NCBI GenBank assembly: GCA_016713885.1
Contig: JADJOF010000007.1
Location: 175,206 to 239,205, forward strand
Direction: 5' to 3'
Length of the DNA stretch: 64,000 nt
DNA from: Bdellovibrionales bacterium
Lineage (GTDB): Bacteria > Bdellovibrionota > Bdellovibrionia > Bdellovibrionales > JAMPXM01
The translations under genes and the position numbers were made by a program. Each line of letters opens with the position of its first letter. The first letter of the stretch is position 1. Below are positions 4,801-64,000 of the stretch, one piece after another. The notes beneath the pieces are model-generated. The model was not told the DNA's origin and searched no databases. It was given only the letters and a program-made list of their open reading frames with translations.

Positions 4801-5052
4801 TGTGAGAGCCTGAATTTCATCAGCCGTCGGCTTTGTCGTTACGGTGAGGAGCGGCGCTGTTTTTAACTTCACCAGATAGAAGCCATGCGTTCCTGGCTCG
4901 GGGCGCGTGCTGAATATTCCCGTGTATCCTGGAGCGAGTTCATACGCTCTGGGCTCCGAGGATGTGTTTCCAAAAAAGGAACAACCCGCAGTCGTCAATA
5001 TCAACAATGCCTGGAGCCCGAGAACCAGAATTACATTTTTCGAAACGTGCAT
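1900..5052 (-). CDS. Subtilisin-like S8 serine peptidase, predicted lipoprotein, with PA-type insert
   Basis: 1050 aa. Lipobox LTTAGC. Catalytic triad motifs IGIIDSGID, GHGTHVAGTVAG and SGTSMAAPHMTGVMALL. Confidence 0.9.
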   Translation of the reverse strand: MHVSKNVILVLGLQALLILTTAGCSFFGNTSSEPRAYELAPGYTGIFSTRPEPGTHGFYLVKLKTAPLLTVTTKPTADEIQALTVEQDLVLKSLTELSADIKVVYRYRLVLNGFAIVAPVALEEKIGAIGGVSHLESAGLFSRPAVEVTNKSILASAIQERNSVKFIGGEAAHARGVRGQGMRIGIIDSGIDYTHSMFGGVGTEQAYKDIKPGEATTLFPSVKVVGGLDFVGTEYDSGAVDFNKRLPIVDGNPLDEGGHGTHVAGTVAGRGDGVSTYDGVAPDASLYALKVFGADGSTNDSVVVAAMEYAADPNGDGDTSDRLDVVNLSLGSGYGDGHILYTEAIQNLSRSGTVVVCSGGNSGDTPYIVGSPGVADDAISVAASVDDMDQNWKFRAAKFTTVDDPEIYTEAIEGAITKPLSEIQSLVGELFYAGLADQDFAPETAAALSGHIALIDRGGVSFADKIRRSEAAGAIAVVVVNSQDDAPFVMGGGDGEKFGIPGVMISKVLGIKLKAALGQGTVRADLTTTKKIEKPELIDTITSFSSRGPRSIDALLKPEISAPGAKIISAKMGGGAAGTEMSGTSMAAPHMTGVMALLKQQNPGLTSAELKSLVMSTARSLKDAEKKPYSLSRQGAGRVQIEKALAQTLLTEPSAISLGVMGLESKRSMQRELVIKNKSPHPVSVHVELREAAVGLKLASQKGLELQANSEQRVSLRFEIEAFGEVGGLVVLTDANGAELARVPVLSVVRSVSRISAEELAVRSTSSLDSQGAVVDLKLKNKSRHDGLALPFNFIARDGRKANPTIDQFQTTICDLAETGYRVIDKAGVPTLQIAAKLFEPMTTWDLCEISVLIDADGDKLADQELVGAKQDHLEGLTAKTYASMLLDVNEAKRLRKEYDVAVMTPRKPEEKAPVLDFKSAIVDLQPMQAFEHSSIAIVEVPLASVRLRSNSGLSVRIATSAQTGSAIEPDDFFSTNPKHWALLNVKDSGASFVGLPESIALKAGESKTVSFVKGGDQGRLLMLYPDGQSVFGGLGTDGQAEVLAPVYRP

Positions 5053-5236
5053 GATTTCCCCCTCGAAAGACCAACACCGCGCCTTGTTGAATCACGACTG
5101 ACGCCGCAATTCCAGGAACAAAATCATCCGATCTTTTTCGACAGGATTTGGGATTCAACGGGGCTTGGGCTAAGGTGACACCAGTTCCGCGGCGCAACGT
5201 CTCACTACCAGCGCCGATTCAAGAAGGAGGGCTCCC

Positions 5237-5677
5237 ATGCAGGTCATTTTGCTCCCAGTTCTTATGACATTGACGATGTCAGCGGCATCAGCGGCAACAA
5301 CCTCGGCACTTGCTAGCCAAACACCCCAATTGCAACCCGGCCTTTGGGAAACCAAGGCTGAAATGACACTGAATGGTATCGACCTTCCAGCCATGGACGA
5401 CAGTGATTGTGTTTCAGAAAAGTCGGCAAAGGATGCGCGGCGTTACGTCACTCGGTACCTTGAGGCCAATGATTGCCAAGTGACGGCATGGACCTACAAC
5501 GCCCCAGCGCTCAGTATCGGCGTTCGCTGCGACAACAATTTCGGCAAGGGATCGGGTCTATTAAAGGGAACGCTCACACTCAGTCAGTTTAAGATGAAAG
5601 GTGTGATCAAGACTTCGACGGACATGGAGTTTGGTCTCGACTTTAGCGGCCGCTACACGCGGACCTGCAAAAAATAG
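5237..5677 (+). CDS. Secreted protein of unknown function (possibly DUF3617-like)
   Basis: 146 aa. N-terminal signal peptide ending SAASAAT. AAGGAGG Shine-Dalgarno upstream. PGLWE motif early in the mature part. Confidence 0.5.
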   Translation: MQVILLPVLMTLTMSAASAATTSALASQTPQLQPGLWETKAEMTLNGIDLPAMDDSDCVSEKSAKDARRYVTRYLEANDCQVTAWTYNAPALSIGVRCDNNFGKGSGLLKGTLTLSQFKMKGVIKTSTDMEFGLDFSGRYTRTCKK

Positions 5678-25009: not shown

Positions 25010-25194
25010 TTGTTCGGAAACTTCTTAACAAAAGCCCGGACATCCTCAGGGTCAAAGAGGATCTTCTTTCCAGGCTTGTATGTTTTGATCTGCCCTTCGG
25101 CGACCTTCTGGTAGACCGTCGACTTTGGCATCTGCAAAAGCGCAGAGACCTCTTCGATTGAGAGATACCGCTCAAGCTGCTTCTCACCCATCAC
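25006..25194 (-). CDS. xis: Excisionase / AlpA-type HTH DNA-binding protein
   Basis: 62 aa. YLSIEEVSALLQMPKSTVYQKVAEGQI..YKPGKKILF. Overlaps the int start by 4 nt. Confidence 0.75.
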   Translation of the reverse strand: MMGEKQLERYLSIEEVSALLQMPKSTVYQKVAEGQIKTYKPGKKILFDPEDVRAFVKKFPNK

Positions 25195-25376
25195 TTAACC
25201 TCGATGCAAACTGTTCGAATCTCTTTGACGGTTCCATCCATCAGCTTTTTCAATTCACGCGCTGATGACTCACACGATTCTTTCGATTTGAATCCACTGA
25301 CATTCGTCAAAGCGTTGCTGTTCCCGCTGCCCATCAATCCAACGTGCATCGCTATCACTAAAACAAAACCCATCAC
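25191..25376 (-). CDS. Small exported or membrane protein, unknown function (absent from unit 2)
   Basis: 61 aa. Hydrophobic N-terminus MMGFVLVIAMHVGLMG. Confidence 0.4.
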   Translation of the reverse strand: MMGFVLVIAMHVGLMGSGNSNALTNVSGFKSKESCESSARELKKLMDGTVKEIRTVCIEVK

Positions 25377-27709
25377 ACCAACTCCATGCTTAGCTGTCCT
25401 TCAAGTGGCTCATCAATGATCTCGTCGTCATCCTCAACGATAGCGACTGGCTTGTTTCGATTGTGAAAGTTGACGGCTGCATCTCTAGGATTGACCGTCA
25501 CCTTGAATGAGTCTCGGTCACTCGTCCCATTGATGACTGCGTCTTCAGCGTGCGCAATCATCCGATAAGCTAAATCGAAATAGCTCCGCTTAAGTTCTGC
25601 ACCGACAAATCGACGTCCCATTTGAACCGAAACGACGCCTTCTGATCCGATACCAGTAAACGGCGAGAACACGAGGTCATCTTTCGCCGACCACAGGTCA
25701 AGGCACCGATGAATCAGATCAAGTTGAAGTGGCGCAATGTGACGCTCATCCTCATCTTCTCGGGCGATGCGGCCGTTAAGCGTGTTCGATTGCTTAATGT
25801 CAAACCACACTGGGCTTGCATAATGTTGCCATCTATCCACAGGGAACTCCTCAGGAGTGTGCGCGATCGGCTTCGTATTCACGCCGGGCTTTCGGAATGT
25901 GACCACGTAGTCAGGCAGACCTTGGCGGCTCATTGATGAGTCTTTCTTGATCTGCTTCCAGAGAAGTCCAAGCGCCTTGGTTCGCTGCATCGCCACGACT
26001 GGGTCTTTCCAAATACAGACCTCAGAATGATAGATGAACCCACGCTTTTGAAACTCACGGATGACATCACCTCTGAAATCACGAATGCCGATCACGCCGT
26101 CACGCTGCTTTGACGTTGTCAGATTCATGCAATGAATCGATACATTTCGACCTGGACGCATGATGCGAGCCATCTCATCAACCAAGAATCCGAAATGGAC
26201 CCAGAACTCGTCGTAGTTCTTTGAGTTTCCCATGTCCCGATCACTGTTTGAGTAAGTGTAAAGCGATGAGAACGGCGGCGAGAATACCGAGTAGTCGATT
26301 GAATCGGAATCAATTGAACGAGCGACCTCAACGCAATCACCGTTGTAAATATCAAACAGCCTGCCTGATTCACGGCGAAGATTATATGTCGAGACCTCGC
26401 GAGTGAGCTGTCTGACTTCGCGCTCTTGAAACTCTCTCATGTGCTCAACGAGTGACGCCGCCATTTCTTCGGCCTGCGCCTCTTTCCGTTTGATGTTCTC
26501 AAGGACTGGACCCTCAGCAGCGTGAGCGATCATGGTCACAGTCACGGGCCTAGTCTGACCGAAACGGTAGCAGCGGCGAATCGCCTGATATATCTGCTCA
26601 AAGGAATCACTTAAACCTACGAATGCCATTTGATTGCAGTGCTGCCAATTCAAACCAAACCCTGCGATTTTTGGCTTGCTGATTAGAACGCGAAGCCTGC
26701 CTTCTGCGAAATCAATCAAGGCCTTCTCTTTCTTCTCAAGCTTGTCAGATCCTTTGATCTCGACCGATCCCGGAATCAGACTAGCAAGCTTCTCACTCTC
26801 ATCGTTTCTATGGCACCACACGACGAACGGACCTTCGGACTTGTTGACCAAGTCAGCGCAAGCCGAGACGCGCTCGTCTACCGTTTCGCGCTTTACTTGT
26901 TGACGGGCCTGAATGCCGTACACTTCCGGCGCAGTCTCAGTCATCTCACCAACGCTATGCATATTCATGATGAGCTCTGGCAAGTCGTAGCCTTCAGCCG
27001 AGAACCCGATATCAGATGGCTTTTTGATAAATACAGACCATGTCGCAAGCCACTCCCAGAACTTCGCTTTGCCGTGACCTTTAAGCCGCCACTTTGAAGT
27101 CTCGCCCGAGTCATGGATGAAAAACATCGAGAGCATTTCAACTTGGCTCATGACGCCAAGAAACTCAGCTTGTGAGCCGAGCTCCATGAAGTCATTGGGC
27201 GATGGCGTCGCAGTACAGCTAAGCCTGTACGGTATCTTTGAGCAGAGCTCAATCACCTGCGCCCTGGTCTTTGAATCCTGATGCTTAATGATCGACGACT
27301 CATCAAGACAGACGCCGTCGAAGTATCCGCGCTCAATGCCATCTCTAAAGTTCTCGAGCATCTCGTAGTTCGTGATGTAAATGCCGGTCTCTTCGTCAAA
27401 CTCGCGCGCGTACTTGATCGGAATGCCAAGCTTGTCAGCTTCGCGTATCGTCTGCTGCGCAACGCAAAGAGGCGCCACGATCAACACTCGATTGCCAGTG
27501 TACTGATGAACAGCCTCAGCCCATGCGCTTTGGATGAATGACTTGCCTAGTCCAGTGTCGGCGAATACCGCTGCGCGCCCACGCTTTAAAGCCCATTTTA
27601 CGATTGCGGCTTGAAACGGAAACAGCATCTCAGGCAGTGGCATATTGGCGTCAAAGCCAGACGGCGCATCGTAGCGCGCTTTTGAGTTTAAGAATGTCTG
27701 ATAGTCCAT
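25373..27709 (-). CDS. SNF2-family helicase fused to a beta-class N4/N6 DNA methyltransferase
   Basis: Helicase motifs ADTGLGKS, CLDESS and QAIRRCYRFGQ. Methyltransferase motif IV FSPPFSSLY lies upstream of motif I FSPFTGIGSEG. The start was moved to MDYQTF (GGGGGGA RBS). Confidence 0.85.
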   Translation of the reverse strand: MDYQTFLNSKARYDAPSGFDANMPLPEMLFPFQAAIVKWALKRGRAAVFADTGLGKSFIQSAWAEAVHQYTGNRVLIVAPLCVAQQTIREADKLGIPIKYAREFDEETGIYITNYEMLENFRDGIERGYFDGVCLDESSIIKHQDSKTRAQVIELCSKIPYRLSCTATPSPNDFMELGSQAEFLGVMSQVEMLSMFFIHDSGETSKWRLKGHGKAKFWEWLATWSVFIKKPSDIGFSAEGYDLPELIMNMHSVGEMTETAPEVYGIQARQQVKRETVDERVSACADLVNKSEGPFVVWCHRNDESEKLASLIPGSVEIKGSDKLEKKEKALIDFAEGRLRVLISKPKIAGFGLNWQHCNQMAFVGLSDSFEQIYQAIRRCYRFGQTRPVTVTMIAHAAEGPVLENIKRKEAQAEEMAASLVEHMREFQEREVRQLTREVSTYNLRRESGRLFDIYNGDCVEVARSIDSDSIDYSVFSPPFSSLYTYSNSDRDMGNSKNYDEFWVHFGFLVDEMARIMRPGRNVSIHCMNLTTSKQRDGVIGIRDFRGDVIREFQKRGFIYHSEVCIWKDPVVAMQRTKALGLLWKQIKKDSSMSRQGLPDYVVTFRKPGVNTKPIAHTPEEFPVDRWQHYASPVWFDIKQSNTLNGRIAREDEDERHIAPLQLDLIHRCLDLWSAKDDLVFSPFTGIGSEGVVSVQMGRRFVGAELKRSYFDLAYRMIAHAEDAVINGTSDRDSFKVTVNPRDAAVNFHNRNKPVAIVEDDDEIIDEPLEGQLSMELV

Positions 27710-57404: not shown

Positions 57405-57642
57405 GTTTCACCGCCTCTCTATACATGAGCACAGCGAGCTGCCGCGCTAGTTGTGACTCGAAGTCATATTCAAACATCTCCGGCAGCATTATTGAGGTGT
57501 CTACAAAGTCCGCATAATGAAGGAGGGCGCTATCACCACAGTATTTCTCAACGGCGGTGCATGAATACCTATGAGGTCCTTGAACCCGTAGACTCTCAGC
57601 CGCACGCATGAGCCTGTCGAGTCGTTCACGCTTAGTCATCAA
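57391..57642 (-). CDS. Hypothetical phage protein
   Basis: 83 aa. Confidence 0.4.
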   Translation of the reverse strand: MMTKRERLDRLMRAAESLRVQGPHRYSCTAVEKYCGDSALLHYADFVDTSIMLPEMFEYDFESQLARQLAVLMYREAVKRGEA

Positions 57643-58129
57643 GCACCTCTGTCAAATTCAAATTAGCAAACTCTCCGAAAAGGTTTCTTGCCGCCGCGTC
57701 ATATGCCTTCGCTGCGTCTTCTCTTTGCTCGAATAACCCTAAGTTAAACCTGTCCCCATTGTGCGTGATGATCGCACGCCATTTGTTACGAACTGCATAG
57801 ACGCCCTTGATTCCAGAAGTGCTATTCAGGTACTTCCGCTTGTTCATCATGTTTTGCGCGCTAGAGCATACCCTCAGGTTTGATCGGCGGTTATTCAACC
57901 CGTTCCCGTCTATATGATCCACCTGGAGTTTTGATTCGGTGACTCCGAGAATTAACCTGTGCAGTCGGATCGTCTTCTGTTTTCCGTTCTCATATATAGA
58001 AGTTCCAGCGTAAGACGAACGGGGAGACTTCATCACATACCAAGCATGTTTTCTCACGAGGTCAAAATCAGCCTCATCGATCAGTGTGACCGCACCTTTT
58101 GTAAGTTGAATTTCCATCGGCTTATTCAT
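57632..58129 (-). CDS. HNH homing-type endonuclease with an AP2 DNA-binding domain
   Basis: LHRLILGV..QVDHIDGNGLNNRRSNLRV (HNH_3-type). IKGVYAVRNKWRAIITHNGDRFNLGLFEQREDAAKAYDAAA (AP2). Confidence 0.75.
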   Translation of the reverse strand: MNKPMEIQLTKGAVTLIDEADFDLVRKHAWYVMKSPRSSYAGTSIYENGKQKTIRLHRLILGVTESKLQVDHIDGNGLNNRRSNLRVCSSAQNMMNKRKYLNSTSGIKGVYAVRNKWRAIITHNGDRFNLGLFEQREDAAKAYDAAARNLFGEFANLNLTEVLDD

Positions 58130-58424
58130 TTTCTAAACTCTCGATAAACTTCACGCACGCGATGCGGTCCTTGCAGGCGTTCTTGTCGGCAAACTCTTTC
58201 GAGTCGTAAAGTTGAATCACATGATGGCCGTCGATCGTTTTATTGTATTCATTGCCCCACAGCACTCGCGGCTCGCGCTTCTCTTTCCACTCGCCGAAAA
58301 CCATTTCGTATGACCAGTCCCCAATTGAGTCAGAATCGAACTCGTCCTTGTCGAACGCAAGGCCATTAGGGCCAATCACCGTCTTGCCAGCCATCGCCGC
58401 TTCTCTTGCTTCAATTATGTTCAC
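58122..58424 (-). CDS. Hypothetical phage protein
   Basis: The GTG at 58424 behind a GAGGAG RBS is preferred over the ATG at 58466. Confidence 0.4.
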   Translation of the reverse strand: MNIIEAREAAMAGKTVIGPNGLAFDKDEFDSDSIGDWSYEMVFGEWKEKREPRVLWGNEYNKTIDGHHVIQLYDSKEFADKNACKDRIACVKFIESLENE

Positions 58425-58594
58425 CCTCACTCCTCTCAAGTGCCCCGTTTTGCCGGGGCCACGCATTCGCCGATTCCTGGATCTGACGGGCGACCTCGCC
58501 TAATTACGCATAGCCAGTTTGCGGAGGGTTTTGTATCCGAACTTTTCACCCTCATTCTGTTCGCAAGCGGCTCGGACAGAATAAAATTTTAAAA

Positions 58595-58762
58595 GACCTC
58601 TCCGCCCGTGCCCCGCGCGACTGTGGCCATGACGCTTCATAAGTCGGGACGTCATCGACGCTCACGTCATCCGTTCTTGCTCGTGCACTTCTCTAGTGGC
58701 ACCTCGGCCCGACCAATCGGGCTGGCACTCCACAGCTTCCAGTGCTGACGAGCGGGGAGGTC
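58595..58762. other. 168-nt nested-hairpin element in a 340-bp coding gap (candidate small RNA or origin)
   Basis: Closing helix GACCTCTCCGC (58595-58605) / GCGGGGAGGTC (58752-58762). Internal hairpins GCCCGA-CCAA-TCGGGC (58707-58722) and GCACT..AGTGC (58725-58745). TGACG repeats. Flanked by the AT-rich AATAAAATTTTAAAA. Confidence 0.3.
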
Positions 58763-58766
58763 AAAA

Positions 58767-59177
58767 TCATTCAACAGATTGGGTTTCAGACTCAGACGCG
58801 CAGTGAGCGTAACCTCCGCTTGGAACTGCCACTTGCCGACTGAAAGACTTGATCACAGTCGGATTTCTAAACGCGGCCATTGCCAGCTCTCGGATCTCTC
58901 TCGAGATACACTTCTGCGACTCAAGCTCGTACTTCAGTTTCTCGATCTCGAATTTTCTTTTTACATCAGCAGCGTCAGATATTTCTGTCTCAGCTTTTGC
59001 AATCTTGCTCCGAACAGATGAAAGATCTATTTCAAGGCGATTGTTTTTCTCTCTTAAAACGCTGTTTTCTGAAAGCACGGCGTCGTACTTACTGGCTTTC
59101 TCGAGGTCTTTTCTCAAGACTTCCATTTGCATTGATGGCAGCGACTTCTCGATTGCATCCATTATTTCTTTTGTCAT
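58767..59177 (-). CDS. Coiled-coil protein
   Basis: 136 aa. GGAGGAAGA RBS. Confidence 0.45.
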   Translation of the reverse strand: MTKEIMDAIEKSLPSMQMEVLRKDLEKASKYDAVLSENSVLREKNNRLEIDLSSVRSKIAKAETEISDAADVKRKFEIEKLKYELESQKCISREIRELAMAAFRNPTVIKSFSRQVAVPSGGYAHCASESETQSVE

Positions 59178-59937: not shown

Positions 59938-60833
59938 GCGCCCGCCTTTCCAAATCGAGTTTGGATTTCTTGCTTCAGCCGCGCAGCCTGTTCCGCAGAA
60001 AGTGGCGGCGGAGACTGGGCCTGGTCTGGTTGTGACGAGGATTGGGCGGGCGGCGCGTAAAGCTGAGCCCTAGGGGTGCAACGGTACTCCCCCTCCATGA
60101 CGGCAATATGCGTCCGTGGGCGAGTGAGGAAATCAAATGTCGCCAACCACTCCCGGTCGTTCTTGCCACGGCAAAACTCCGACCTCGCGATTCTGTCGAT
60201 GACATCGACCCACCTTGCTCGATCAGGCTCCTCGCAGATTCTTGCAGATGCAGCTTTCCAGCGTTCTTGTGTTTTTTTGAATCGGCCCATATCCACTAGC
60301 GGCATTGGCTTTCCCGCCACAGACTTCATCCCCGACATTCTCGCGTTCCAAAGTTGAGCGAGCTCGGGCGGCTCAAAAGTTTCTCCCGTACCCTCTTCAA
60401 AAGAATCTACTACACAACACTCCACTACACTTGGAGTGTCGGGTGACACTTCGGTAAGTGTCGGTGAAGTGTCGGGTGACACTCTAGGTACCTTTAAATT
60501 CGAGTCCATAAGACCAAGTCTCTGAAGTTTGTTGACGGCCGCCTGCTTAGCGCGGAAGCCATCCTTCGACTCGCCGTATTGAAACTCGAAGAACGTGACG
60601 AGGAAGAACTTGTCTGTATCAAATTTGATAACCTTCTCGCCAAACCACTCAGTCAGATTTGACTCTGTGACAGGAAATCCAAGATGAAAAGACATCTGAG
60701 GAAAGTCGCCGGGCCATATTCCGGCGTGATCGCACTGGTCGCAAAGATACAGAAACGCAAGCTTTGCCTTGAACGGTAGCTCACGGAACGACGGCCGCTT
60801 CCACTTGTCGGTGTCGGTGAATCGCTTAGGCAT
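59934..60833 (-). CDS. Replisome-organiser-like replication protein
   Basis: 299 aa. N-terminal FTDTDKWKRPSFRELPFKAKLAFLYLCDQCDHAGIW is typical of phage replisome-organiser N-domains. Confidence 0.45.
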   Translation of the reverse strand: MPKRFTDTDKWKRPSFRELPFKAKLAFLYLCDQCDHAGIWPGDFPQMSFHLGFPVTESNLTEWFGEKVIKFDTDKFFLVTFFEFQYGESKDGFRAKQAAVNKLQRLGLMDSNLKVPRVSPDTSPTLTEVSPDTPSVVECCVVDSFEEGTGETFEPPELAQLWNARMSGMKSVAGKPMPLVDMGRFKKTQERWKAASARICEEPDRARWVDVIDRIARSEFCRGKNDREWLATFDFLTRPRTHIAVMEGEYRCTPRAQLYAPPAQSSSQPDQAQSPPPLSAEQAARLKQEIQTRFGKAGA

Positions 60834-61740: not shown

Positions 61741-61757
61741 TTCACCAGTTTTTCACC
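61741..61757 (+). promoter_or_regulatory. Arm-type repeat TTCACCAGTTTTTCACC (copy 1)
   Basis: An identical 17-mer recurs at 61978-61994. The two copies bracket the tRNA-Arg half. Confidence 0.45.
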
Positions 61758-61890
61758 AGATACTTCTCTGTTTCGTCGTTTTTGATTGTACTTAGCTGGA
61801 CTCTCAAAATGATGGTCAAACCATTGATAGGCTTGGGTTTCAGCGGAATGATTCGGGTTCTTCGGATTTGGTGCCTTACGTCTGGAACAG

Positions 61891-61977: not shown

Positions 61978-61994
61978 TTCACCAGTTTTTCACC
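61978..61994 (+). promoter_or_regulatory. Arm-type repeat TTCACCAGTTTTTCACC (copy 2)
   Basis: Identical to 61741-61757. It overlaps the int2 stop codon. Confidence 0.45.
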
Positions 61995-63102
61995 CCACAC
62001 TTTCGCGTCCTGTTCCGAGGCGGAAGTGCGCCGCAACTGCGTTTAATTGCTTCTCGTCGAATCGGATGTAGTGCTTCATCGCGACCTTCATCGACATGCC
62101 TAGAGCTGAACAGACCACGACAGGGTTGAGCGCAGGATTTGAAAACGCCCGCGTCGCATAGCTCGCGCGGAAGTCATGGAATCGGCCGTCGATACCGAGC
62201 GCCTGCCTAAGCTTTGTCCACGGTTTCTTGAATCCGCCCTTGTCCATAGGGCGCTTTTCGTCCCACGCGTTCGGGAAAACATACGGGCTTTTCGGATAGT
62301 CGGCGCACTGTTTCTTCAGCGCCTCAATGACCTCGGAATGGATCGGAACCACACGACTCTGTCCGGTCTTCGTGTCTGTTTTCTTGAGCCTGATGCAGCC
62401 TGCGCCCCAGTCCATTCGGTCTTTGGCGAGCTGCGTAATTTCACTCGACCGCATGCCCATGTACTGGGCCATGATGATCCAAAGCCTGACGGCCTGTTCC
62501 GGGGCCTGGACGCCATCCTTGCCGTCGCGGAACTGCATCAACTGCTCGTCTGTGTACGACTTCCCGACGCCATCGTCCTCGTCGTACTCTGCATCAGGGT
62601 TGTAAATGTCAGGCGCACGAATGATATACCCGACAGCAAGGCACCAACTAAAGAACCCGGAAAGGTACTTCCAATGGTTCAAAAACTTGGTCGCGTCCCC
62701 TGACTTCGACTTCTCTTTGACGTGGGCCATGTACTCAACCCAAGCGTCACCCGTGATCTGATCAACGCGCATCGATCCAAAGAATGGTTTATACCATCGC
62801 TCTCCGAAGTGAATGTATTCCTTGATCGTGCGCTCACGGACCTTCGCAATGCCTCGAACCTTGCCCGTGGCCTTCGCTTCGATGAACTCTTCCCACGCGT
62901 CTTCAAAGATCTCTTTTTCACGACGCCAGTCCTCACCAAGAAGGATCGCCTTCTCGATGTCTTCAGCAAGCTTTTGCGCAACGGCAAAGTTCTTTGTGTT
63001 CAGCGCTTTCTGCACACGTTGGCCCTTGCAAGAAAACCTTGCATGGTACCACTCGCCGATGCGCTTGATGCGGCTGTCTCTGGTGTCCTGATAGTGATTC
63101 AT
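61990..63102 (-). CDS. int: Tyrosine site-specific integrase (unit 2; not similar to int of unit 1)
   Basis: 370 aa. GMRSSEITQLAKDRM, HDFRASYATRA and AMKHYIRF. Confidence 0.9.
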   Translation of the reverse strand: MNHYQDTRDSRIKRIGEWYHARFSCKGQRVQKALNTKNFAVAQKLAEDIEKAILLGEDWRREKEIFEDAWEEFIEAKATGKVRGIAKVRERTIKEYIHFGERWYKPFFGSMRVDQITGDAWVEYMAHVKEKSKSGDATKFLNHWKYLSGFFSWCLAVGYIIRAPDIYNPDAEYDEDDGVGKSYTDEQLMQFRDGKDGVQAPEQAVRLWIIMAQYMGMRSSEITQLAKDRMDWGAGCIRLKKTDTKTGQSRVVPIHSEVIEALKKQCADYPKSPYVFPNAWDEKRPMDKGGFKKPWTKLRQALGIDGRFHDFRASYATRAFSNPALNPVVVCSALGMSMKVAMKHYIRFDEKQLNAVAAHFRLGTGRESVG

Positions 63103-63311
63103 GACGCGTTCTTACGCTTGATCCATTTCCTAATTTCGTCCGGATCAAATCGACGATGCCGCCCGATCTTGATTGACGGTATCTGATTCGTCGCAACGTA
63201 GAGCTTCAATGTCGATATTGGAATCGACGTGAACTCGCGAACGTCTTCGATCAACCAAAGTCGCTCCATCTTTTGCTGTGAAATCTTTGATGATTTTCTC
63301 TCTTCCATCAC
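63099..63311 (-). CDS. xis: Excisionase / HTH_17-type DNA-binding protein (unit 2)
   Basis: 70 aa. WLIEDVREFTSIPISTLKLYVATNQIPSIKIGRHRRFDPDEI. Confidence 0.75.
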   Translation of the reverse strand: MMEERKSSKISQQKMERLWLIEDVREFTSIPISTLKLYVATNQIPSIKIGRHRRFDPDEIRKWIKRKNAS

Positions 63312-64000
63312 ACCAACTCCATGCTTAGCTGTCCTTCAAGTGGCTCATCAATAATCTCGTCACCATCCTCAACGATAGCGACTGGCTTGTTTCGATTGTG
63401 AAAGTTGACGGCTGCATCTCTAGGATTGACCGTCACCTTGAACGAGTCTCGGTCATTCGTGCCGTTCATGACTGCGTCTTCAGCGTGCGCAATCATTCTA
63501 TGAGCAAGATCAAAGTAGCTCCGCTTAAGTTCTGCACCGACAAATCGACGTCCCATTTGAACCGAAACGACGCCTTCTGATCCGATACCAGTAAACGGCG
63601 AGAACACGAGGTCATCTTTCGCCGACCACAGGTCAAGGCACCGATGAATCAGATCAAGTTGAAGTGGTGCGATGTGACGCTCGTCCTCATCTTCGCGAGC
63701 AATGCGGCCGTTGAGAGTATTTGACTGCTTGATGTCAAACCACACTGGGCTTGCATAGTGCTGCCATCTATCCACAGGGAACTCCTCAGGAGTGTGCGCG
63801 ATCGGCTTCGTATTCACGCCGGGCTTTCGGAATGTGACCACGTAGTCAGGCAGACCTTGGCGGCTCATAGATGAGTCTTTCTTGATCTGCTTCCATAGAA
63901 GTCCAAGCGCCTTTGTCCGTTGCATCGCAACGACTGGATCTTTCCAAATACACACCTCAGAGTGATAGATGAATCCACGCTTTTGAAACTCACGGATGAC
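63305..64000. repeat. Long direct repeat, partner at 25370-26065 (offset 37,935 bp)
   Basis: Colinear by eye, with about one mismatch per 15-20 nt. Homology starts abruptly at CATCACACCAACTCC and runs to the window end. Confidence 0.85.
63308..64000 (-). CDS. DNA methyltransferase C-terminal part of a second helicase-methylase gene (5' end outside window)
   Basis: 214 residues align to the C-terminus of 25373-27709 with only 4 substitutions (Y/H, I/M, S/N, D/G). Confidence 0.85.
   Translation of the reverse strand, partial: VIREFQKRGFIYHSEVCIWKDPVVAMQRTKALGLLWKQIKKDSSMSRQGLPDYVVTFRKPGVNTKPIAHTPEEFPVDRWQHYASPVWFDIKQSNTLNGRIAREDEDERHIAPLQLDLIHRCLDLWSAKDDLVFSPFTGIGSEGVVSVQMGRRFVGAELKRSYFDLAHRMIAHAEDAVMNGTNDRDSFKVTVNPRDAAVNFHNRNKPVAIVEDGDEIIDEPLEGQLSMELV

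Follow-up and report, generated by a model that had tools for sequence, protein, structure and literature searches.

A putative terminator-like hairpin and translation leader at a gene junction in a P22-like prophage of the Bdellovibrionales

Introduction

In T4-type phages, promoter-early stem-loops (PeSLs) combine a terminating stem-loop and a strong sigma-70 promoter with a Shine-Dalgarno sequence and start codon at the 3' edge (PMC2839356, PMC4122927). There are about 50 of these elements per genome, in variable and non-essential regions, and they have been proposed to be linkers for homologous recombination and gene shuffling (PMC2839356, PMC4122927). Here, we describe a non-coding element of a familiar kind, itself previously undescribed, from a P22-like prophage in a metagenome-assembled genome of the Bdellovibrionales. 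We analyzed a 64,000-nt stretch of contig JADJOF010000007.1, which we will call the window; positions are numbered from its first letter. The element fills a 342-nt gap (58425-58766) between two genes on the minus strand, which is the coding strand for nearly all of the prophage's genes. We will refer to it as the cassette: a long hairpin, a spacer, and a short leader.

Like a PeSL, the cassette is a short conserved intergenic composite with a stem-loop and with a Shine-Dalgarno sequence and start codon at its 3' edge. It also resembles the PeSLs in its location among variable, non-essential genes, in having flanking genes that differ between phages, and in a proposed role as a recombination linker. 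Unlike the PeSLs, it has no detected promoter, it is single-copy, its sequence is unrelated, and its far longer stem-loop accepts apical inserts of 110-135 nt. Because it lacks a promoter and is present just once, we consider the cassette to be PeSL-like in part and not a member of the PeSLs.

Another relevant system is the nin region of lambdoid phages. This dispensable region separates the replication genes from the late regulator and contains termination signals that are read through by N antitermination (PMC10695390, citing Cheng, Court and Friedman 1995). The cassette resembles the nin terminators tR2-tR4 in being located in an accessory region after the replication genes, in being on the same transcript as the genes that follow, and in needing read-through. 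Also, this P22-like prophage carries a RusA gene close to the cassette. The cassette differs from these terminators in that no N- or Q-type antiterminator was identified and in that termination is only predicted here. Its hairpin is also much larger than lambda's tR2. By analogy, the accessory region around the cassette is probably dispensable and would correspond to the nin region.

As it stands, the cassette is an ordinary kind of element. It is a concrete case, outside of the T4 group, in which the points of gene gain and loss in a phage genome are marked by short non-coding blocks that are conserved. DNA methylases, an Acb2/Tad1-like anti-defence gene, and homing endonucleases are among the genes exchanged at it. 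It also gives a first look at regulatory punctuation in the phages of predatory Bdellovibrionales, which are almost unstudied. For annotators it carries a caution: a long gap with an apparent nested hairpin can be a simple hairpin with inert inserts.

Results and discussion

Three conserved blocks in the gap

The original prediction, which was made without database searches, described a gap in coding that holds a 168-nt nested-hairpin element with TGACG repeats and an AT-rich flank. It offered three explanations: a small RNA that might be antisense to the operon, a large terminator or processing structure, or a replication origin. All of the sequence features that it listed are present where it placed them. 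The list of open reading frames (ORFs) confirms that the gap has no gene, and because the neighbouring minus-strand genes overlap or nearly abut, the gap itself is real. Our preferred reading is that the gap is a non-coding junction cassette on the sense transcript, with a putative terminator or attenuator hairpin, an optional spacer, and a translation leader, and that it may act as a recombination linker as well. We believe this reading about as much as we doubt it.

DNA searches gave almost nothing, so we looked for relatives of the cassette through the neighbouring proteins. This led to seven distinct versions of the element from related metagenomic phages, all of which we describe on the strand that matches the window's minus strand (labels such as L019 denote the relatives). 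Three blocks, A, B, and C, are nearly invariant among these variants. Block A (TTTTGACCTCCCCGCTCGTCAGCACTGGAAGC) is identical in the window, L019, L035, L001, L003, and L025; it has one change in L026 and two in L032. There are five different upstream genes, and block A either overlaps their stop codon or begins 0-4 nt past it. In the window, the TGA stop of a 136-aa gene (58767-58769) abuts the TTTT that precedes the hairpin. This gene is absent from the close relative L019, where a 35-aa membrane-protein gene adjoins the hairpin, as it does in L003, L026, and L032. In L025 the upstream gene is Acb2/Tad1-like.

The 3' arm of the hairpin (GCACGGGCGGAGAGGTC), which is in block B, is identical in five variants, whereas L026 and L032 have 1-2 changes. 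A tract of three to seven Ts comes after block B in all seven variants and in one solitary copy of block B. The tract is T3 in L003 and T7 in L035 (TTTTTTTGATT); most of the others have T4 and then A/G- and T-rich sequence.

A long hairpin on the sense strand

The 11-bp closing helix of the original prediction is real. It can be extended to 15 nt per arm, of which 13/15 are complementary. A helix of this quality arises in about 1% of 300 composition-matched random sequences of the size of the gap, and both arms were found again in the seven variants from other phages. The closing helix is present in both the minimum-free-energy and the centroid folds of the long form. For the region from 58590 to 58770, the z-score of the fold is -3.95 (plus strand) and -1.91 (minus strand). 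These low values are due to the closing helix, as the interior alone folds like shuffled sequences.

The helix had been described as fully paired on the plus strand. This holds for the outer 11 bp and fails over the 15 bp, where one wobble and one mismatch are present on either strand. The helix alone therefore does not identify the strand. Two other features point to the sense strand: the placement of the hairpin after stop codons, and the T3-T7 tract, which follows the helix on the minus strand only (on the plus strand, the helix is followed by AAAATCAT, with no U tract). A terminator or processing structure is the best fit of the three explanations that had been offered, and its strand, which had been left open, is the minus or sense strand. 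As expected for an intrinsic terminator, a stable G+C-rich hairpin lies on the transcribed strand downstream of a stop codon.

The architecture is clearest in the short forms of the element (L001, L026, and L032), which fold into a compact hairpin of 65-67 nt with a free energy of -24 to -34 kcal/mol. From its base, this hairpin consists of a lower stem of 15 bp, largely G-C pairs, then an internal loop, and then a short upper stem, CUGU(G)/(C)ACAG, that is capped by a small loop. Stem position 7 is mismatched on the sense strand in every variant; in L026, a change from C to A leaves this sense mismatch in place and would remove an antisense G-U pair. At stem position 12, the sense strand has U-G in most variants and U-A in L026. 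The 12-nt strand CAGCACTGGAAGC of the internal loop is invariant even though it is predicted to be unpaired.

A leader in front of different genes

Block C (GCGTGGYCCCGGCAAMACGGGGCACTTGAGAGGAG) was compared across nine distinct contigs. It includes a small hairpin followed by the Shine-Dalgarno sequence GAGGAG, which in the window is 5 nt before the GTG start codon of a 100-aa gene. Comparison to homologues indicates that the true start of this gene is GTG at 58424 and not ATG at 58466. In 8/9 contigs, GAGGAG is 5-6 nt from an ATG, GTG, or TTG codon; in L033 the distance is 11 nt. Because its distance from the start codons is nearly constant, the Shine-Dalgarno sequence appears to be a functional signal. 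The genes that follow block C are of at least six different types: the 100-aa gene, a Dcm methylase, a Dam-like methylase, and several others (66, 78, 91, and 114 aa).

In the hairpin of block C, 97% of the cells are paired across contigs. The only variation that keeps pairing is C-G to U-G, in 4/9 contigs, which pairs on the sense strand only. L025 and L035 each have one uncompensated break in this stem.

Together, the stop-codon placement, the T tract, and the near-constant Shine-Dalgarno distance suggest that the cassette punctuates the sense transcript. Under our preferred reading, a long imperfect hairpin would form right after the stop codon: a lower stem of 15 bp, always mismatched at one position, would lead through an internal loop to a short upper stem, and the U tract would come next. 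This hairpin would most likely be an intrinsic terminator or attenuator, or equally a hairpin that protects the 3' end, and would punctuate the early operon. A dispensable spacer of 120 nt would come next in the transcript, and the leader, with its small hairpin and GAGGAG, would supply translation initiation for whichever gene follows. Because blocks A, B, and C are common to otherwise unrelated phage segments, we suspect that they are also homology patches for swapping genes in and out.

Two dispensable inserts

The hairpin comes in long and short forms. In the long forms (the window, L019, L035, L003, and L025), the apex contains 111-135 nt, and the whole hairpin is 168-192 nt. In the short forms, a loop region of 9-12 nt takes the place of the 111-nt insert. 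The inserts of L019 and L035 are identical to the window's apart from one nearby base, whereas L003 and L025 have unrelated sequences of 132 and 135 nt at the apex. These three types of insert cannot be aligned to each other. They have one motif in common, the 9-mer GAGAAGTGC (58685-58693 in the window), which is complementary to the GCACUU of block C.

The inner hairpins and repeats that had been reported from the insert do not stand out from chance. The 111-nt interior folds no better than shuffled sequences, with z = +0.28 (sense) and -1.32 (antisense); across the three types of insert, the z-scores are +0.28, +0.19, and -1.20 (sense) and -1.32, +0.02, and -2.46 (antisense). TGACG or CGTCA occurs four times, yet some 5-mer reaches four copies in 59% of random sequences. 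The supposed 168-nt nested-hairpin element is a simple hairpin that carries an inert apical insert. This insert would have been gained in this phage with no detectable function of its own, and it probably weakens termination. We also considered whether the apical inserts are vestiges of block C and the start of the downstream gene, and rejected this: the local alignments were no better than for shuffled sequences (p > 0.15). An inverted or invertible segment was rejected as well, as the inserts of different phages are unrelated and not inverted copies.

The second insert is the spacer of about 120 nt between blocks B and C. A homologous spacer is present in L019, L032, and (in part) L026. L001 and L025 have unrelated sequence in its place, and in L035 and L003, block B abuts block C. 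For instance, L035 has the same apical insert as the window, yet its ...GGTCTTTTTTTGATT is directly joined to block C and the AT tract is replaced. The spacer contains the only true covariation that we saw in the region. In hairpin H2, the 6-bp stem is GAGGGT/ACCCTC in the window versus GGGAGT/ACTCCC in L032. The two stems thus differ by two compensatory double substitutions, and both enclose the same 18-nt loop (GAAAAGTTCGGATACAAA). L026 has a similar hairpin.

The apical insert and the spacer are present or absent independently of each other. The window's 342-nt gap thus appears to be a minimal unit of about 120 nt plus two dispensable inserts. The cassette as a whole is also dispensable: it is entirely absent from L022, L005, and L016, where the flanking genes overlap. 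Each phage locus, like the 64-kb window, has one copy each of blocks A, B, and C in the same relative position, except that L032 has an extra arm of block B. Mosaic junctions repeatedly occur at the edges of blocks A, B, and C and of the first 45 nt of the 100-aa gene. Between the window and L019, the identity is 100% over a 387-nt junction and over an HNH-AP2 endonuclease gene, versus about 50% in between.

Coding potential and database searches

A conserved small ORF that spans the region had been named as an observation that would count against a structured element. Comparison of frames did not find one: the open frames in the gap, among them one that is Arg-rich and in phase with the downstream gene and another that encodes LEKC, differ between variants. 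Six-frame comparison gave no preferred frame on either strand, as expected for conservation at the nucleotide level, and the substitutions relative to L032 have no synonymous bias in any consistent ORF. A collection of 15 billion predicted proteins contains none of the gap's small ORFs, and at NCBI the two flanking proteins have consecutive accessions (MBK7892855.1 and MBK7892856.1).

The original prediction had proposed a search of Rfam and a check for covariation. Rfam gave nothing at the gathering threshold across the whole window; permissive searches of the gap region, L003, and L025 gave chance-level matches only; and the closing helix has no compensatory changes. A search for tRNA and tmRNA genes found none. 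DNA similarity gave no match in the GenBank phage collection, and exact-pattern scans matched only two IMG/VR contigs and one metagenome contig. The patterns for the insert and for the start of the 100-aa gene (block D, below) had no match in viral contigs.

We rejected two other known kinds of element. The ends of the hairpin are GACCTC...GAGGTC, without the R''/R' cores (RYYYAAC ... GTTRRRY) of an integron attC site, and the only recombinase nearby is a phage-type integrase. Neither an integron integrase nor a reverse transcriptase is present among the scanned neighbouring proteins or contig annotations, so we also set aside an integron or retron RNA.

Evidence against a terminator and alternative explanations

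Several observations weigh against our preferred reading. First, the lower stem has no compensatory double substitutions among the variants: 3/5 of the observed changes break a pair, and L032 has three mismatches in 15. Second, the U tract is short compared with the roughly 7-9 nt of an intrinsic terminator; it is U3 in L003, and most variants have U4 and then A or G. A simple terminator scan does not report the hairpin, because it is much longer than a canonical terminator, and the 168-nt long form, with arms that are 138 nt apart, should terminate poorly. Third, no N-, Q-, or gp24-like antiterminator gene was recognized with Pfam or PHROGs, though N-like proteins are small and diverge quickly, and a scan of every variant recognized no sense-strand promoter after the hairpin. 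Given the lack of both, read-through must occur, and the short or weak U tracts and long-form inserts would ease it. (For sigma-54 or sigma-70 promoters, nothing conserved was seen in the blocks or spacers, by eye or by scan.) Fourth, the identity of the blocks may reflect the recent shared ancestry of mosaic phages rather than selection, so their conservation is weak evidence of selection. More informative is where the breakpoints fall, repeatedly at the edges of the blocks, which is also how the PeSLs of T4-type phages behave (PMC2839356, PMC4122927). Finally, a plain terminator leaves both the invariant CAGCACTGGAAGC and the shared 9-mer GAGAAGTGC unexplained.

The hairpin might instead be a site for RNA processing or stability, either cut by RNase III or blocking exonucleases, with block C as the 5' end of the downstream message. 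This is unlikely, though it has several attractions: an irregular 65-nt sense-strand hairpin with a lower stem, an internal loop, and an upper stem lies between cistrons; with no promoter after the hairpin, the downstream genes share the same transcript; and the U tract of L003 is weak. The hairpin would be similar to the RNase III sites between the early genes of phage T7, the likeness being an irregular intercistronic hairpin of about 60 nt with an internal loop. In contrast to those sites, the cassette hairpin always has a T tract after it. This tract is not needed for processing, yet it is kept in every variant and extends to T7 in L035. Also, the long forms drastically change the upper hairpin.

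It is rather unlikely that the cassette has no regulatory role and is selfish or neutral, such as an inverted repeat akin to a miniature inverted-repeat transposable element (MITE) or a patch of homology that survives through recombination. Its terminal inverted repeats are 15-bp and imperfect (13/15), with TTTT on both sides and a variable interior, and like the enterobacterial repetitive intergenic consensus (ERIC), Correia, and MITE families, it has terminal inverted repeats, is transcribed within operons, and has short and long versions due to internal insertion. The dispensability of the cassette in relatives, the uncompensated decay of the stem in L032, the solitary arm of block B that truncates a Dcm gene fragment in L032, and the mosaic junctions at the edges of the blocks all fit as well. 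However, those families are multi-copy and dispersed, while the cassette is in single copy at a constant relative position in each phage, with no other copy in the 64-kb window, and is not found in representative bacterial genomes: neither a 21-mer from block A nor a 25-mer from block C (with one degenerate position) has a match in 185,579 representative genomes. As the flanking TTTT is constant, we consider it part of the element and not a target duplication. And a selfish or neutral repeat does not account for a Shine-Dalgarno sequence in block C at 5-6 nt from the start codons in 8/9 contigs.

Returning to the two sequences that a terminator does not explain, we can speculate that the invariant lower stem and internal-loop strand are a scaffold that accepts unrelated apical inserts of 110-135 nt, or that, together with the hairpin of block C, they are a recognition site for an undescribed antitermination or processing factor, with GAGAAGTGC-GCACUU as a contact. 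We think that this would probably turn out to be wrong.

A more specific proposal is that the hairpin and block C are the RNA recognition sites (nut- or put-like) of a phage antitermination system and load a factor onto RNA polymerase. By visual comparison, the block C hairpin (GCCCCG-GCAAAA/GCAACA-CGGGGC) is similar to a boxB-type stem-loop. The unpaired 12-nt strand of the internal loop is invariant, and a P22-like prophage whose genes run in one direction makes antitermination plausible. Nevertheless, the proposal is quite improbable. As described above, no N-, Q-, or gp24-like gene was recognized. The terminator-like hairpin comes before the boxB-like one, which is unlike the order of nut relative to the terminator just upstream; the block C stem is broken without compensation in L025 and in L035; and some relatives lack the entire cassette.

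A trans-acting small RNA, either from the plus strand or from the 3' untranslated region of the upstream gene with the 9-mer as its seed, is very improbable. What suggests it is the low z-score of the plus-strand fold, the 9-mer that is common to three otherwise unrelated inserts, and a promoter-like site 7 nt upstream of the helix. This plus-strand site, TTCGCA-16-TAAAAT (58560-58587), is present as originally described and is the sole promoter-like match in 2 kb, but 2.0 +/- 1.5 matches are expected by chance. Moreover, it lies in the optional spacer, which relatives with the same hairpin do not have; L035 lacks it despite having the same insert. The plus strand has no U tract or other terminator after the helix, the low z-score is due to the closing helix alone, and the short forms have no room for the body of an RNA. 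The absence of a match in Rfam and of covariation or compensatory changes in the stem argues against a small RNA on either strand, including the antisense one that was originally proposed.

Least probable of all is a replication origin in which the TGACG repeats would be iterons next to an AT-rich tract. In its favour, two copies of ACGTCATC lie 15 nt from each other and close to an inverted copy, there is a 15-nt AT tract, and the replication genes are 1.2 kb away. But if the motif is counted as a post hoc choice, the number of repeats is not significant; neither the inserts of L003 and L025 nor any of the short forms have the repeats; L035 has other sequence in place of the AT tract; relatives L022, L005, and L016 lack the cassette; and a better array of repeats lies inside the O/DnaD-like gene. 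That array is two to three copies of the palindromic, iteron-like AGTGTCACCCGACACT at 60430-60485, in the part of the gene that encodes a repeated SPDT linker. The linker region of a replication gene is the classic position for a lambdoid origin. By this analogy, the AGTGTCACCCGACACT repeats are a better, lambda-like candidate origin.

The prophage and the neighbouring genes

Among the products of the P22-like prophage in the window are an integrase, RecT/YqaJ, a small terminase, and portal and coat proteins of the P22 type. Along the direction of transcription, the integrase gene comes first, and the genes for an HNH-domain protein, an O/DnaD-like replication protein, and RusA come next. After several small genes there are the 136-aa gene, the gap, and the 100-aa gene, followed by the HNH-AP2 endonuclease gene, further small genes, and terminase. 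This places the cassette in an accessory region between the replication genes (O-like and RusA, upstream) and the packaging genes. The coordinates of the cassette and its flanking genes are in Table 1.

Table 1. Features in and around the gap, in positions of the window and in the order of transcription.
Feature	Position	Strand	Basis
Upstream gene, 136-aa coiled-coil protein	58767..59177	-	ORF list; exact protein MBK7892856.1
Block A: TTTT + 5' arm of lower stem (58748-58762) + invariant strand CAGCACTGGAAGC(TGT)	58732..58766	-	Variant comparison
Apical variable region, 111-nt long-form insert (inner hairpins and TGACG repeats)	58624..58734	-	Comparison of variants
Block B: GGCCACAGTCGCGCGG (long forms only) + 3' arm (58595-58609) + TTTT (58591-58594)	58591..58628	-	Variant comparison
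15-nt AT tract	58580-58594		
Optional spacer of about 120 nt: AT tract (58580-58590), H1, H2, plus-strand promoter-like site	58467..58590	-	Variant comparison
Hairpin H1	58554-58582	-	In optional spacer
Hairpin H2	58524-58553	-	In optional spacer
Block C leader: hairpin GGCCCCG-GCAAAA-CGGGGC (58440-58462) + Shine-Dalgarno GAGGAG (58430-58435)	58425..58466	-	Nine distinct contigs
Downstream gene, 100-aa protein (MNIIEAREAAMAGKTV...)	58122..58424	-	Identical to NCBI MBK7892855.1

As DNA, the first ~45 nt of the 100-aa gene (58380-58424; MNIIEAREAAMAGKTV), which we call block D, keep 91-100% identity across more than 12 distinct contigs. Beyond block D, the amino acid identity among relatives falls to 43-76%. 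Block D could be either a recombination patch or under constraint at the nucleotide level.

Some of the genes near the cassette are associated with mobility or with anti-defence. The window's HNH-AP2 endonuclease gene (57632-58129) has 100% identity to its L019 counterpart, compared with only about 50% for the gene just upstream, and L001 lacks the endonuclease gene. In its distribution, this gene seems to behave like a mobile homing endonuclease gene. In L032, at 4973-5278, a fragment of a Dcm methylase is cut just after the ENV motif by a solitary block B with T5, and just downstream of the truncated fragment is an IS1595-family transposase gene. In L025 (3849-4256 and 8556-10279), the gene directly upstream of the hairpin belongs to the Acb2/Tad1-like family of anti-defence sponges, and three genes further downstream carry Mtd_N domains. 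Mtd_N domains are found in the targets of diversity-generating retroelements.

The window may not contain the whole of this prophage region. A direct repeat of 696 bp (25370-26065 and 63305-64000, 94% identical) corresponds to the 3' end of a gene for a fusion of SNF2 helicase and N6-N4 DNA methylase. Also, the 100-aa protein has a second accession, MBK7892906.1, which is about 50 genes away; a look-up of a second copy of the 100-aa gene in the same assembly gave nothing. The repeat and the second accession point to a tandem pair of related prophage units, of which the second would run past the window's right end, with MBK7892906.1 about 38 kb beyond that end.

Finally, we noticed two other repeated or shared sequences. 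The gap that separates the integrase gene from the first early gene has a direct repeat of 25 nt (TTCACCAGTTTTTCACC...), with copies at 61741-61765 and 61978-62002, 237 nt apart; these could be operators or arm-type sites for the integrase. Just left of the prophage unit, a 68-nt stretch (25183-25250) is 100% identical to positions 3-70 of L035, at its integrase-proximal end, and may be the core of an attachment site or a phage-end sequence.

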